From Octopus vulgaris (lineage: Eukaryota), in contig OX597816.1 in NCBI GenBank assembly GCA_951406725.2, positions 161,944,001-162,008,000 on the forward strand: a DNA stretch of 64,000 nt, read 5' to 3'. Positions 9,124 through 30,430 of the stretch are shown here, piece after piece. A program made the translations under genes and the position numbers. The notes beneath the pieces are model-generated. The model made no database searches. It worked only from the letters and a program-made list of their open reading frames with translations, and was not told the origin of the DNA. Numbering within the stretch: the first letter of the stretch is position 1; each line of letters opens with the position of its first letter.

Positions 9124-11011
9124 TGATTGATTGATTGATTGATTGATTGATTCTAGTTTCAGCTTATGAGCTGTGGCCATGCTGGGGCACCGCCATTTTG
9201 TGTTGCTACTTGGTTTCACTTCATGGAGGCTTTCTAGCAGCTGCTATTTGGTGCATGAGAGAGTTCGATGCAGCTGCCCTCATCTGCCCCTCCTGCCGTG
9301 AAGTTGGTTCATCTGGGACACCTGACAGGAAGAGATCCAGCTTCATTTTAAAGACATCTGTATCCACCCCATGCAGGTCTCTCAGGTTCTTCGGGAGGAT
9401 ATTGAAGAGCTGTGGGCCTCGGAAGCCCAGGCTATCACAGTATCTTGTCCTACATCTTGATGGCAGGTTTGGAGTCCTAGGCACCACGCAGTGGCGCCCA
9501 GTTCTGGCATTTGCGTAACTCTCGATGCCAAAGTTCAGGACACTTCCCTCCAGGATCTTCCAGATGTATATTATGGCATATCTTTCCCGCCTACGCTCCA
9601 AGGAATATAATTTTAATCTCTTGAGTCTTTCCCAGTAGCTTACATTCTGCATAGAGGCTATCTTCTTTGTGTAGCTTCGTTGGATCGCCTCAAGTTCTGT
9701 GATCAACTTGACACTGGATGGTGACCATAGCTGAGAGCAATAGTCAAAGTGGCTTAGGACAAGTGTCTTCCAGAGGACCATCATGGTTTCTTGTTCTCTT
9801 GTTCTAAAGGTTCTAAGAATCCATCCAGCCAGCCGTCTACATTTCATTGTCAGTTTAGCAACATGTACATGAAAGGTCGCGTCATCACTCATGTGAATAC
9901 CCAGGTCACGCACTGATTGTGCCTCTGGGATTGCAATCCCTCCGGGTCCAGTGTATTCATTGGGTATTGCATTCAGTTTTGCATGCTGATAGTATAAAGC
10001 TTGAAACTTTCCAGCATTGAACTGCATGCTATTCTTTTCAGCCCACTTGTATATTTCGTCCAGCTCACATTGCAGGTGTTTAGTGTCCTCAGGGTTCTGT
10101 ATTGCCTGTGAAACTTTTGTATCATCTGCATAACTTGTGATCGTGGCTCTCTGCGTGGCTGAGGGCATGTCTGAGAGGGCCATTATGAACAGTAGTGGTC
10201 CCAGAACAGTGCCCTGCGGAACACCGCTCACTATTTGTGTGTTAATGGAGGTGGCCCCATTGGATACTACCACCTGACTTCTATCCTTCAGAAAGTCATG
10301 AAGCCATTCTCCCAGTTTTCCAACTATGTTGAGATCACGCAGTTTGTGACATATCATTCCATGATCGACTTTATCAAAGGCCTTTGCAAAGTCGAGATAT
10401 ATCACTTCCACATTTGAGTGGTTGAGCAGCCGTTTCAGCACCCAGTCATAGTGTTGTAGGAGCTGAGTTAAACAGCTTCTCCCTGGTCGGAAACCATGTT
10501 GGGTGTCGGGCAGCAAGTCATTCTCTTCAAGGAAGGTGATCAGCTTCCTTCTGACTATTCGTTCCATGACCTTGCTGATGTGTGAGGTCAGAGAGATAGG
10601 CCTATAGTTCTTGGCTTCCGCTCTGCTACCTCCTTTATGAATGGGGCATATTTTACCTTCCTTCAGTTTTCCTGGAAGTTTGCCAGCTGCAAGGAAGCTC
10701 TGAAAGAGGAACTGCAGTGGTCTTGCTAGGACTCTCTTACATGCTTTTAGGAGGATTGCCGGGAATCCATCGGGGCCAGTAGCTGAGTCTGTTTTCATTT
10801 CATCTATAGCCTTCGTTACATCGTCTTCCTTTATATCGATGTAATCTATCGTCGCCGCCTCTGATTTTATATCTGCAGTGGTAAAAAAGTCAGTTGGATT
10901 GGTGATTTGGAGATGCCCAAGGGGTGGAGTGAAAACACTCTTGAATTGCTCATTCAGTATTTCACTTACCCTCATTGGTTTTCCTGTAAGTGTGCCATCC
11001 TTTTCGAGGAT
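9124..11011 (-). mobile_element. CR1-clade LINE, 5'-truncated, with 3' UTR and (AATC)n tail, inserted in (TA)n
   Basis: Contains the RT ORF, a short 3' UTR with terminal stem-loop and a (TGAT)n tail on the plus strand at 9124-9152; (TA)n on both sides. Confidence 0.93.
9221..11011 (-). CDS. LINE ORF2 reverse transcriptase, N-terminally truncated (~596 uninterrupted codons)
   Basis: Motifs [88 protein letters not shown]. The ORF-track Met at 11095 lies in the TA repeat and is not a real start. Confidence 0.95.
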
Positions 11012-11021
11012 ATAAAATATA

Positions 11022-11091
<70 letters not shown>

Positions 11092-11092
<1 letters not shown>

Positions 11093-11300
11093 CACAACTC
11101 AGTTCCCGGGTTACATGGCGTATCTATTCCATTCCTTGGATGGGACGCCAATCGGGAGCAAAATTTACCATCTGAGTAGACTGGGATGACGCGAAATGAA
11201 ATATTTTGCCTGGCAACACAACGCATCGCCCGGTCCAGAAATGGAAACCACAATTTTACGATCATGTGTGCTACACCCTAACCACTACGCCACGCGCCTC
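11092..11300 (-). mobile_element. tRNA-derived SINE related to family C, diverged
   Basis: Minus strand GAGGCGCGTGGCGTAGTGGTTAGGGTG..GGTTTCCATTTCTGGACCGGGCGATGCGTTGTGTTGCCAGGCAAAATATTTCATTTC. Confidence 0.65.
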
Positions 11301-20516: not shown

Positions 20517-20612
20517 TAGAACAAATGGTGAGAGATTACCAATCCAGGTAAATACTTCATAAGCTCTCTGTTGGCACACCGGGCTAACAATATTACTTAC
20601 TTTAGTGAAGAA

Positions 20613-20935
20613 CACATGGCTCAGTGGTTAGAGTGTCGAGCTTACGATCGTGAGGTTGTGAGTTCGATACCCAGACCGGGCTGCGTGTTGCATTCTTGGC
20701 GCAAGACACTTTATTTCACGATGCTCCAGTTCACTCAGCTGTAGAAATGAGTAGCGACGTCGCAGGTACCGAGCTGTATCGGCTTCTCCCTTCGATAACA
20801 CTGGTGGCGTGGAGAAGGCAGGCCGGTATGCATGAGCGACTGCTGGTCTTCCATAAACAACTTGCCCGGACTTGTGCCTCGGAGGGTAACTTTCTAGGTG
20901 CAATCCCATGGTCAGTCATGACAGAAGGGGGTCTC
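20613..20935 (+). mobile_element. SINE family C, full length
   Basis: Colinear with 6052-6385, including the 3' end GGTGCAATCCCATGGTCAGTCATGAC. Confidence 0.85.
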
Positions 20936-21138
20936 AACAGTGAAGAACTCTAGGTAATCTTGAGGTAGAGTCTTGTCGTACATCACAATTCTATATTGCA
21001 AATCAGTGGAGGGGTTCTGTTAATTTTCTTAGGTCGTTCAATTTTCCTCGGTTGAGGAATAGACTAATTGAGTAAGCTTATCAGTAATGTATCCGAAAAA
21101 TGAAAAATATGTAATGACCATTATTTTTGACTTGTCTG

Positions 21139-21178
<40 letters not shown>

Positions 21179-21183
<5 letters not shown>

Positions 21184-21615
21184 AAATACTAAATTTCTAA
21201 ATCTCTTGTAGAGACACGTACGGTGGTGGGGCGTGTTAGATTGACAGTATACAACCATTCTATCGCCCCACCACCGTACATGTCTCTACGAGAGATTTAG
21301 AAATTTAGTATTTCTTATTTTGATAATCAGTGAATAGACTTCACTGAATTATAGATATATACAATACGAAGTCGAGACAAATATCGCCAGCTGACCGGTG
21401 TCTGCTACTCTAGGCCGATGAAGGACAATGATCCTGAAACACGTGTCCCTAGATGCAGCGCCGGCGGCCGGGGTGTTTGTCTCCCTTCGTAAATGTATAT
21501 AAGGACACAGGGAAAAATGTGTCAAAGCCATCAGGAGGCGTCGATGCTTCCTAGGGTTATACAGCGGTGGTGTACCCCCAACTGTCACGTTCGTGTTAGA
21601 TTGACAGTATACAAC

Positions 21616-21623
<8 letters not shown>
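21179..21623 (+). mobile_element. Retrozyme-like / PLE pseudo-LTR element: 360-bp unit with 32-bp terminal redundancy, 55-bp inverted 5' arm and internal hammerhead
   Basis: CGTGTTAGATTGACAGTATACAACCATTCTAT at 21232-21263 and 21592-21623; 21179-21233 is the near-perfect inverse of 21264-21318; (TA)n on both flanks. Confidence 0.75.
21402..21458 (+). ncRNA. Type I hammerhead ribozyme (CCGAUGA core variant)
   Basis: Stem I TCTAGG(21409-14)/CCTAGA(21448-53), extended by CTGC/GCAG; core CCGATGA; stem II AGGA(CAATGA)TCCT; GAAA; palindromic stem III AC-ACGT-GT; GUC triplet ending at 21447. Confidence 0.8.
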
Positions 21624-21661
<38 letters not shown>

Positions 21662-21664
<3 letters not shown>

Positions 21665-21836
21665 TAAGCAGCTACTACACATTTTTTTCTCTCCTTGTTT
21701 CTTTCTGTATTTCTTTCTGTGGAAGAGCGTAGGCTCGAAACGTAAAAGACTTTTTCAAATCCCAAGCGTTATACTAATACATCTATTTGTTTTCTACACC
21801 ACCTGTCCTCGTCTTTTGTTTTTCGTGAATTCCCCT
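21662..21836 (+). mobile_element. (TA)n-flanked HHR mini-element
   Basis: HHR motif 21712-21749 TCTTT-CTGTGGAA-GAGC(GTAG)GCTC-GAAAC-GTA-AAAGA, then CCCAAGCGTTATACTAATAC and CACCACCTGTCCTCGTC. Confidence 0.75.
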
Positions 21837-21852
21837 ATATATATATATATAT

Positions 21853-22053
21853 GACCTCGTGTGTACCGTTGGCGATATGTTTTCCTCTGTCTTCCCTTCT
21901 CTGGATCTTTCCTTCTCCTATGTTTCCGACGAAGAGCTCCGCTCGAAACGTTAAACCCTCCTTCTTCCCTTCTTTCCTGAGCGTCCAATAATACTATATT
22001 TGTTCCACGTCCTCGCGTTGTTGTGTTTTTTTGTGTTTTCTTGTTTGGATTAA

Positions 22054-22056
<3 letters not shown>
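21853..22056 (+). mobile_element. (TA)n-flanked HHR mini-element, second subfamily
   Basis: HHR motif 21922-21956 GTTT-CCGACGAA-GAGC(TCC)GCTC-GAAAC-GTT-AAAC, then CCTGAGCGTCCAATAATAC and CCACGTCCTCGCGTTGTTG; homologues at 50815-50972 and 58015-58203. Confidence 0.75.
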
Positions 22057-26985: not shown

Positions 26986-27549
26986 TTAAAGTTGAAACTT
27001 AAAATCGCGGTGTTTCTCATCAGATCACTAAATTTTCCTGAAATTCTTACAATTCCCTATTTCAACAATTACAGACAATGTCATCTACTATGTTTTCTAC
27101 TATCCTATCATTACTAAAGGTTTCTGAAGAATATTCTACATTTTAAGAAGTCAGTAGCAACTAACTTTAAAACTACTTCTGTTAAATAATTTCTATATCC
27201 ATCGTATATAGGGAAATATTTATCGATAATTACTAAAAAATATTTGGTTACAATAGAATAAAAGTTTAGTAAAACGGTAAGAAAATGGGATAAGCCATAT
27301 GATTCTGTCTATATTTTTCTTTAACAAAGTGATATACTACAAAAGTAGAGTCCAGTGTAATCCATAGGTAGGAGAGGTGCAGCAGGAGTGTAAAAAGTCC
27401 AAAAGAGAATCCGTAAAGGGTAGAAAGGTAGAAAGTCCAGTGGAGAAGTTCGTGGGTGATGAGAGGAGACAGAATCAACTGGTGCGACCACGTGAGGGTG
27501 TGTTATATGGGGAGAATTCACGAAAAAGACGAAGACAGGTGGTGTAGAA

Positions 27550-30430
27550 ATATTGTCTGGCAGGATGTTGAACAACTGCGGGCCCTTGAAACCAAGACTA
27601 TTGCAGTACTGTGTCCTTATTTTAGGTGGGGCATACAGGATCTTTGGTATGATGCAGTGCCGTCTAGTTCGAGGATTGGTAGAGCCGGCAATTCCAAAAT
27701 TGGGAGCTAAACCCGCCAAGATCTCTCTCTTCTCTCACGGGAATAGCAACTCAGTTCCTTTAGCCTCTCCTAGTAGCCCATCTTTTGCATCGAGTCAATC
27801 TTCTCTGTGTATTGACGTGGGATTGCTTCGAGTTCCACAATTTGTTTCACACTCTCTGGGGACCATAATTGGGAGCAGTAGTCCAAGCGGCTGAGAACGA
27901 AAGTCCTACATAGGAGTAGCAGGGCCTTCCTTTTCGTTGTTCTGAATGTCCTCAGAATCCAGCCAGCCACTCGCCTGCACAGTGTTGCCATCTTGGTAAT
28001 ATTCACATGGAGTGTTGCATCATTGCTCATGTAGACTCCCTGGTCACACACCGGCCCTGATTCTGGAGTCGTATTACCTTCTCGTCCAGTGTATTCCGAT
28101 TTTAGCTTGGTGTTGGGCCGATAGTGGATTACCTGAAATTTCATGGTGTTGAACTGTATGTTATTTTTGTTAGCCCATTTGTATATTTCGTTTGGGTCTT
28201 TCTGCAGTTATATGATGCCCTCCGGGTTCCTAACTGCCTGCGATACTTTTGTGTCGTCAGCATAACTGGTCAGATTGGCTGACTGTACCGCGGAGGCATG
28301 TGTGAGAGGGTCACTACAAATAGTAGTGGCCTCAGTACACTTCCCTGTGGGGCTCTGCTGAGAATGGTGTCTCTTCAGAGTGAGGACCATTGGCTACAAC
28401 TGTCTGACTCCTGCCCTTCAGAAAGTCATGCAGCCACTCTCCCAGTTTCCCAGTAATACCAAGGTTTCGCAGCTTGTGACATACCATGCCATGATCAACA
28501 TTGTCGAAGGGTTTGGCAAAGTCGAGGTTTATCACATCTACAGCTGACTCGTTTAGCTGTTGCTTCAGTATCCAGTCAAAGTGCTATAGCAACTGTGTGT
28601 GGCAGCTCCTCCCTGGACGGAAGCCTTGTTGCGTGTTTGTGAGAAGGTTTTTTACTTCTAGGAACGTGATAAATCTCTTTCTAACAATGCGTTCCATAGT
28701 CTTGCTAGCATGTGAGGTTAGAGAGATGGGCCTGTAGTTTTTAGCATCTTCTCTGCTGCCTCCTTTGTGGACAGGGCATATTATACCTGCTTTTAGCATG
28801 TTGGGAAGTTTACCACATGCAAAGAAACTCTGAAAGAGCATCTGTAGTGGCTTTGTAAGAGCCTTTTTACATGTTTTAAGAGATCAGCCGGGAGTCCACC
28901 TGAGCTCGTTGCTTAGTTTGATTTCATCATCAGTAGCCGATATTACATCTTCTTCTGTTATGCTGATGTAATCGATGGCTGCCTCTTTTCCAAATTCGTT
29001 ACATTGAAAAGTTCCTCAGGCTTGTTTATTTACATATTTTTTTCAGTGGAGAAGAGAAAACACTTCGGAATTGTTTATTTAGTGTTTCACTGATCTTTCC
29101 CGGGTCTGCAGTTAGTGAACCGTTTTTACGAAATAGTGGTCCTATTTTATAGCGTACTGAGGCAAACTCCTTTGCCAACGTGTAGAAGGCTTTAGGATTT
29201 CTTTTTATATTTTCGGTTGCCCAGGTTTCTCTTTCTCCACTTTCTTTTTCATGGTAGAGTTTGAGTTTATTTTCAAACCCGAAGAGTTCCTCTGTTAGGT
29301 GGGATTTCACTCTGTCATTGAGATGTTTGTTTAAAAAATTCGAGATCTTTATTCTCCGCCGTATGAGTATTCTCTCTTCTCTGGGGCATATTTATTGCAT
29401 ATGGCTCGCATTTTTGATATGAATTCATTGAGTTTCATATGCATATCTTGCAAAGAGAGACTTTTAGGCCAGTCCTGCTGGAGTATCTATTTCTCAAGTG
29501 ACTTCCAATCAGCCTCATAGATATTTAGGATGGATGGGGTTTGAGCGCTATCTGTGCAGAATTTATCTTTAGTTAATTCCGGGCCGTACATTTCTATTAT
29601 GTTATAGTCTGAGAATATTGTCGGCCATATATTGACGTTGTGAATAATTTCCACATTGTTTATAAAACAGAGGTCCAAGTTATGTTTGTGCCTGGTTGGA
29701 AAGAGAGTATGATCTTAGTTAGTTAGTTAATTTGGCTCAAAAGCAAATAGCAAGGCCATGTAGGGGACATGGAGTTAAGTACAGGGTGGTGTTCATGTAA
29801 AGAGTTCAGGCCACTTGAGGTCAAGGGAGGCTTTGAACAAAGCGGTCGTCGGCATCTTCACCATCTCGTCTGGCAGCTTGTTCCACGGATCCGCAACCCG
29901 GACGGAGAAAGCTCCTCTCCTTCGATTGAGATGAAATCGTCGCAGGTAGAGCTTTTCGGAATGACCCCGCAGCCGACGCTCTGGAGCAGGAGTGAAGAAC
30001 AGCTCTTTCGAGAGGTTACACTTTCCGCTTATGATGTTGTGGGCGAGAATGACATCACCACGGCGGCGGCGTTTTTCTAGAGAATAAAGGTCGAGCGTCC
30101 TCAGCCTTTCTTCATAGGACAAATTTTTGAGACCATGAACCATGCGGGTAGCCAGCTTCTGGACTCTTTCGAGATGCTGTATGTCTTTGAGGAGATAAGG
30201 AGAAGAGGATCCACGAATAGCATTTTCACAAGATTAAGTAGAGATTCTGCTTGATTTCGCTCTTTGGGAGTCATTCCTGGGGTTATGTTGCCCTCAGGGG
30301 AAATTTGGGAAGATGAAGTCACCCATCGGGAATATAGTAGTACGTTGATCCAATTGTGTTAGTACTCCTTTTTATCATACTGAGGCTTTCCTCAGATTTT
30401 CCATCATGATTTGAAGCACCAAATTCTCCA
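27550..30430 (-). mobile_element. Old, frameshifted CR1-clade LINE related to 9124-11011, including part of the endonuclease region; interrupted at 29716-30207
   Basis: Fragments [66 protein letters not shown]; upstream NIKRNPKAFY and LDLCFINN. Confidence 0.9.
29716..30207 (-). mobile_element. 3' end of a different CR1-type LINE with (TAAC)n tail, nested in the older LINE
   Basis: ORF 29793-30143 LSYEERLRTLDLYSLEKRRRRGDVI..RGHSEKL..FSVRVADPWNKLP (classic CR1 C-terminus); TAGTTAGTTAGTTA tail at 29716; GATC on both sides. Confidence 0.88.

Follow-up and report, generated by a model that had tools for sequence, protein, structure and literature searches.

The locus and its parts

The element occupies positions 21179 to 21623 of the window, by which we mean the whole 64,000-nucleotide stretch of Octopus vulgaris DNA that was analysed, and is a young member of a dispersed repeat family, non-coding and with a unit of about 363 nt. 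As the first-pass annotation of this DNA had proposed, it is inserted in a (TA)n microsatellite, whose left half (21140-21181) and right half (21621-21666) are both evident in the sequence. Between them lie two arms of opposite orientation. The direct arm (21232-21623, plus strand) measures 392 nt, or 1.09 units, and consists of unit positions q1-360 followed by q1-32, q1 being nucleotide 21232. It terminates at q32, one of two fixed ends of the family. The inverted arm (21179-21233, minus strand) has its outer end at the other fixed end, q87, and carries only the 55-nt tail, unit positions 33-87. In the direct arm the same tail lies at 21264-21318 (plus strand) between the two fixed 3' ends, and its borders are predicted, by analogy with the anole Penelope-like element (PLE; PMC11167929), to be start sites of reverse transcription. 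The 55-bp inverted copy that had been noticed at the 5' end is 96% identical to this tail and is the tail-bearing end of the second arm. The window copy is an extreme two-armed case, in which that arm holds the tail only.

Further along the plus strand of the direct arm lie the motif ATCAGTGA (21326-21333), common to U1 and U2 upstream regions and predicted to be an snRNA-type proximal promoter element; the predicted transcription start, A21383, within a site of about 16 nt (21381-21396) that other copies duplicate around LINE or ORF1-only modules and that is empty here; and a type I hammerhead motif (21402-21458) with a predicted cut after C21447, which is q216.

The annotation had read an exact 32-bp repeat, 360 bp apart, as the terminal redundancy of a 360-bp unit. 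The repeat is indeed present (21232-21263 and 21592-21623) and 360 nt is the period of the window copy, but the commonest unit length in the family is 363 nt, seen in 10 of 30 units that range from 357 to 369. Terminal redundancy did not survive comparison with the other copies. Their 5' ends vary freely and most are shorter than one unit, so that the 32-bp repeat is an accident of the window copy and marks only its truncation point. A hammerhead repeat of the animal non-LTR retrozyme kind is present here as a copy truncated on its 5' side and inverted in part.

The surroundings of the element are a nest of PLE ends. Adjoining it, positions 21664-21836 hold the 3' terminal repeat of a different family of Penelope type, one of very high copy number. 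This repeat is 80% identical to the terminus of a disrupted RT + GIY-YIG element (L180) and has a minimal hammerhead-like motif of deviant core. A further TA-flanked repeat follows at 21855-22055, with a minimal hammerhead-like motif at about 21925-21960 whose core reads CCGACGA (also C4) and whose stem II reads GAGC/GCTC. Upstream of the element, a tRNA-derived SINE-like sequence was recognized by eye at 20610-20940.

A multicopy family of short, non-coding units

The hammerhead repeat is found at many hundreds of sites in the 2.8-Gb source genome. Near-full matches of the unit number 44, at 95-100% identity (40 scored out of 1,905 candidates). Exact 27-mer matches number 1,229 at q3-29, in the 3' end of the repeat, 428 at the hammerhead core (a 27-mer with two degenerate positions) and 224 at q89-115, against 0 for each reversed control; these counts are lower bounds, sensitive to polymorphism. 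Their fall from q3-29 through the core to q89-115 fits truncation from the 5' side. Tandem unit copies occur at three loci (L002, L014 and L042), and arrays are short, with at most three tandem cores among the first 100 of the 428 core matches. Copies longer than one unit run on into the previous unit, indicating a permuted or multimeric template. The unit is therefore not single-copy in its source genome; it is multicopy and tandem-permuted, as befits the head-to-tail repeats of 150-450 bp called retrozymes.

The longest ATG ORF of the element encodes 89 aa, on the minus strand, and is not stable in frame across copies, since the indels common among them would shift it. On this basis the element is non-coding, as had been claimed, and in coding content conforms to the retrozyme description, that of a unit with no protein coding and no LTR, PBS or PPT. 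Coding DNA is found beside a minority of copies, where it belongs to an inserted LINE or its ORF1-only derivative; the unit is not always the terminus of a long coding PLE. In contig searches no holder of the unit is on record as RNA, and contigs from four runs presumed to be RNA carry it with the same 3'-heavy coverage as the DNA runs, a pattern that bears on neither expression nor circles. That the unit is transcribed is something we infer.

A sister family, its unit 352 nt long (2,777 candidates), makes two-ended, often TA-flanked insertions like those of the window family. It is seen at L187-L205, where the core is UUGACGA and the two fixed ends are its own; L184 and L183/L209/L210 represent other variants.

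The hammerhead and its probable activity

The complete type I hammerhead with a GUC site and a CCGAUGA core that had been described in mid-unit is borne out by the sequence. Stem I pairs 21409-21414 with 21448-21453; the core CCGATGA (21415-21421) is followed by stem II (AGGA/TCCT) and GAAA; stem III is the palindromic ACACGTGT; and C17 of the GUC site is nucleotide 21447. The motif comprises a distal helix, a UAC bulge, a 6-bp stem I and a 4-bp stem II with a CAAUGA loop. It is the only match of a hammerhead scanner in the 64-kb window, on both strands. The covariance-model check that the annotation had suggested did not recover it: Rfam gave no hammerhead match at gathering score, nor among 26 matches at E ≤ 10. 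The best Rfam matches of the element were set aside as hairpin artefacts of the inverted repeat.

The C4 core (U4C) is the state of the family, being found in 42 of 45 cores, and its reading as decay of the window copy was rejected on that ground. The U4 form has 12 matches in the genome versus 428 for either form, although the two numbers come from different search patterns. One PLE family of this genome also has a C4 hammerhead core (L090, L093), and the U4C change in PLE-type motifs may reportedly be described among the PLE hammerhead variants of Lunse et al. 2017. U4C is a natural variant with considerably lower activity in vitro that still permits viroid infectivity (PMC3088659).

Conservation of the fold was assessed against the sister family, which keeps the same structure, distal helix included, with different letters. 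In an alignment of 11 sequences, both partners differ between the two families in 12 of the 17 named pairs, and 96.7% of pair cells are paired, far above shuffled and slid controls. Stem covariation, which the annotation had required among copies, is thus present, though it stems essentially from two lineages and not from many independent events. The monomer is strongly self-paired (fold z -7.6, 0 of 100 shuffles). In the isolated 71-nt motif, stem III is absent from the minimum-energy fold. A tandem transcript of L002, taken from the predicted start to the second hammerhead, folds in both the minimum-energy and centroid structures (z -6.8) into a double hammerhead, whose halves are joined by an 8-bp palindromic stem III and which encloses exactly one monomer. 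Such a dimer mode has been described for animal type I motifs (PMC4209133, PMC6765202).

A different view would dispense with cleavage altogether. PLE mobilisation could use an uncleaved linear multimer as template, or successive template jumps, the U4C hammerhead being weak or dispensable and no circle being formed. The low activity of U4C and the shortness of the arrays both agree with this, and promoter-bearing tandem genomic copies (L002, L014) could supply the transcripts. Moreover, the anole PLE needs no hammerhead cleavage in order to insert in vitro, and hammerhead mutants have no effect on its insertion (PMC11167929). A further point against the cleavage step is that 8 of 9 Xenopus dimers tested were not cut (bioRxiv 10.64898/2026.07.22.740005). 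Two features are not readily accommodated by an uncleaved template, namely the retention of the full fold with other letters in the sister family and the double hammerhead around exactly one monomer, and together they suggest selection on cleavage. We regard the uncleaved template as rather unlikely, and favour a probable, if by no means assured, cleavage of the element RNA at the hammerhead.

Insertion ends carry a Penelope-like footprint

The 3' ends of copies are fixed at about q32 or about q87, 55 nt apart, and the 5' ends are variable. Inverted insertions obey a strict rule. In a hand count of 39 distinct cases (L001-L060 and L095-L124, duplicates removed, fixed ends accepted at q26-33 or q76-89), 31 combined an arm end at about q32 with one at about q87; eight had one internal end, and none used the same fixed end twice. 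This combination of partial tandem, inverted arm and one-sided tail is the PLE layout, since partial tandems, inverted 5' copies and a tail at one side are described for PLEs (PMC8557442). The anole PLE protein in vitro has two internal reverse-transcription starts, one on either side of the tail, and makes nicks in both DNA strands of AT-rich targets (PMC11167929).

(TA)n adjoins 23 of the 27 distinct loci of one set of genome copies. At some non-TA insertions (L031, L040, L056, L114, L129 and L135), target duplications of 10-12 nt were noted by eye. These would suit a SINE-like element moved by a LINE, for instance the L1/Tx1-type LINE found inside it, and LINEs also make 5' inversions. However, the unit has no poly(A) or LINE-like 3' end, the two fixed internal ends follow their one-of-each rule, and the LINE modules, which end in AATAAA, sit inside the unit as passengers; LINE-driven movement of the unit is accordingly very improbable.

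At the predicted cut site there is no clear pile-up of 5' ends: about five, by eye, fall at q213-221, a cluster no sharper than those at q178-180 and q252-262. One copy has a single internal jump at q216, the predicted cut site itself (L028:1337-1440), and another a single 3' end at q217, beside it (L138:2347-2562). These two junctions are possibly records of cleaved RNA ends.

Candidate partners in the genome

Intact PLEs encoding RT + GIY-YIG are present in the genome, with many 781-aa frames, and also end in (TA)n. The young intact family at L081-L089 (e.g. G000:C16:20835500-20841500) encodes, ahead of the 781-aa RT + GIY-YIG ORF, another long frame (400+ aa) that matches nothing clearly in Pfam, and the hammerhead-like core of the family is TTGATAA (a U3-A8 variant). 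The partner search scored 150 out of 6,136 GIY-YIG candidates. When the unit was compared by BLAST with 34 GIY-YIG loci, no homology to a PLE terminal repeat rose above chance, and neither the 781-aa nor the L090 family bears sequence likeness to the unit; nor does the L180-type PLE family, which was outside the BLAST of 34 loci. The identity of the partner is likewise one that we infer.

The end geometry, being that of a PLE, could also mean that the unit is the pseudo-LTR of an unlocated autonomous PLE and that the dispersed copies are its 3' fragments. It may be added in support that the searches scored 40 of 1,905 DNA candidates and 150 of 6,136 GIY-YIG candidates. Yet none of the copies examined has an RT + GIY-YIG ORF between pseudo-LTRs, as an autonomous PLE would. 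Copies longer than one unit enter another unit or a LINE module, never a PLE ORF. A tblastn search with the 781-aa protein found no match in L001-L060 and a single one in L095-L140, at L117, where the unit interrupts the PLE ORF. A pseudo-LTR origin is, in our judgement, most improbable. The earlier proposal of a non-autonomous ribozyme retroelement mobilised by a PLE is, in contrast, supported by a unit that is multicopy, tandem-permuted and non-coding and has PLE-like ends.

A likely snRNA-type promoter

The sequence ATCAGT is found in 13 of 13 aligned upstream regions, drawn from U1 (4 of the 12 loci fetched), U2 (5 of the 12 fetched) and the retrozyme (four variants). It precedes the AT(A/C) start by 57 nt in U1 and 59 nt in U2. 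In the window the corresponding distance, to A21383, is 57 nt, and the unit there has ATCGC, as at the U2 start. A TATA-type promoter was set aside once the motif common to U1 and U2 had been found. An snRNA-type promoter is likely for the unit, although it is predicted from a short motif. Precedent comes from newt satellite 2, likewise a hammerhead repeat with an internal snRNA-type promoter (as cited in PMC2220036); that of the octopus unit is predicted only from the motif common to U1/U2.

A proposed copying route

These data are best explained, we believe with good confidence, by a hammerhead retrozyme that is probably reverse-transcribed into TA microsatellites by a PLE enzyme acting in trans. 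The starting points of the model, i.e. copy number, fixed ends, the inversion rule, motif conservation and a promoter-like motif, are observed directly. The internal snRNA-type promoter would start an RNA at 21383, about 30 nt before the hammerhead, and on a tandem copy the transcript would extend to the next hammerhead. The two hammerheads would then pair via the palindromic stem III and excise one monomer, which may circularise; a circular RNA template seems to us slightly favoured. For its part, the PLE RT/GIY-YIG protein would make nicks in the two strands of AT-rich DNA, and reverse transcription would be primed from the two fixed internal sites, 55 nt apart. Priming at two sites would yield direct, partial-tandem or two-armed inverted insertions.

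By sequence-level tests the element is a variant of the known animal non-LTR retrozymes, whose units measure 350-390 bp in Mytilus, 330/350 bp in the axolotl and 220-245 bp in Acropora (PMC7229834). Like them, it has a non-coding unit within 150-450 bp, arranged head to tail and bearing a single type I hammerhead; it also shares the strongly self-paired monomer, the large target-site duplications and the coexisting PLEs. It differs from those retrozymes, as they appear in the available part of that paper, in having a family-wide U4C core, mostly truncated and dispersed copies, short arrays and an explicit two-ended PLE footprint. The same available text mentions neither octopus nor cephalopods. 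No literature on cephalopod retrozymes was found in a search that most subscription journals lay outside, and the accessible text of PMC13282606 mentions none.

PLEs have already been proposed as retrozyme mobilisers (Cervera and de la Peña 2020, PMC7229834). The PLE-derived retrozymes of Li, Clavereau and Pollet (2026, bioRxiv 10.64898/2026.07.22.740005) are of the same class and have the same proposed mobiliser, and 21 Xenopus transposable elements matching retrozymes were PLEs. The evidence in the portion available of that preprint is co-occurrence and pseudo-LTR phylogeny in vertebrates, whereas the octopus link is made by insertion ends. With PLEs (PMC8557442; anole PAc, PMC11167929) the octopus unit shares partial tandems, an inverted 5'-truncated arm, a one-end tail, AT-rich or microsatellite targets and a hammerhead. 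Unlike the PLEs of those excerpts, it lacks an RT/GIY-YIG ORF and has a tail of 55 nt versus 30-40, and its hammerhead has full-size stems as opposed to the minimal PLE form (PMC4209133). For the enzyme that mobilises animal retrozymes, the case so far is made from co-occurrence and phylogeny. Here, a nucleotide-level footprint (two fixed ends, one per arm) matches the two start sites measured for a Penelope protein. Together with intact candidate PLEs in the same genome, it makes the retrozyme-PLE pairing testable in vitro. The family also provides a natural U4C hammerhead retained in a young family.

LINE passengers at the predicted start

Modules of 1.6-5.4 kb interrupt the unit in about 20 distinct loci. 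They lie at q150-165, just past the predicted start and ahead of the hammerhead, and the site is duplicated around them. Module A has one ORF of about 470 aa with a CCHC motif, and a 3' end in AATAAA. Of the 30 best matches to its protein, 17 are next to the unit; the remaining 13 are at other places, frequently arranged in tandem with poly(A). AP endonuclease, RT and zf-RVT domains (PF03372, PF00078, PF13966) identify module C as a LINE. Module A is homologous to its ORF1 (27%, E 8e-24); for ORF1 the zf-CCHC match is weak and below cut-off. The inserted LINE appears to be L1/Tx1-type, with Tx1 assigned by domain content and ORF1. A homologue search for the ORF1-only protein found nothing, and the atlas placed it among CCHC/ZCCHC3-like clusters of low recognition value. 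The closest named relatives of one LINE protein of the genome are from Argonauta. Elsewhere in the window, a 625-aa LINE reverse transcriptase frame lies at 9221-11098 (minus strand), with more fragments at 27321-30233.

The same LINE and A-like modules occupy the equivalent site of the sister family, where the target sequence is different (L206, L185). Of fourteen loci with the exact A 3' junction, 12 still have the 5' end of A together with upstream unit, a state that agrees with separate insertions into copies already in place. The other two show an inversion inside A (L172) and a truncation inside A without upstream unit (L174), and by alignment variants are shared by both parts of composite copies in L175/L176 and L125/L126 only. 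L172, L174 and the variants shared in L175/L176 fit occasional movement of the composite.

Tx1-clade LINEs (Tx1 in Tx1D, Keno in U2, Tx1-Mar; PMC4494074) likewise target a single position in another repeat, and the target is duplicated on insertion. The octopus LINE, of the EN-RT-zfRVT kind, resembles them in occupying one position of a repeat, and differs from the named members in that its target is a predicted retrozyme start and varies in sequence between sister families. No literature joining retrozymes and Tx1 was found, most subscription journals being outside the search. HAL1 half-LINEs offer a likeness for ORF1-only derivatives inserted at one repeat position.

A more elaborate reading, which we put forward as tentative, sees a parasite of three layers: a circular RNA from an snRNA promoter with a slow, dimer-gated U4C hammerhead; its two-start Penelope copying; and start-aiming L1/Tx1-type LINEs as occasional cargo. 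The LINEs would land just 5' of the ribozyme and borrow the snRNA-type promoter, and would sometimes become protein-coding cargo inside a ribozyme-to-ribozyme unit. In any event, LINE insertions mark the predicted promoter/start site of the unit, and with the fixed ends and the likely snRNA-type promoter they make the copying route testable. ORF1-only modules also occur in tandem arrays with variable poly(A) (L152, L153, L160-L170), where several lie 25-35 nt 3' of TATA-like words belonging to other repeats.
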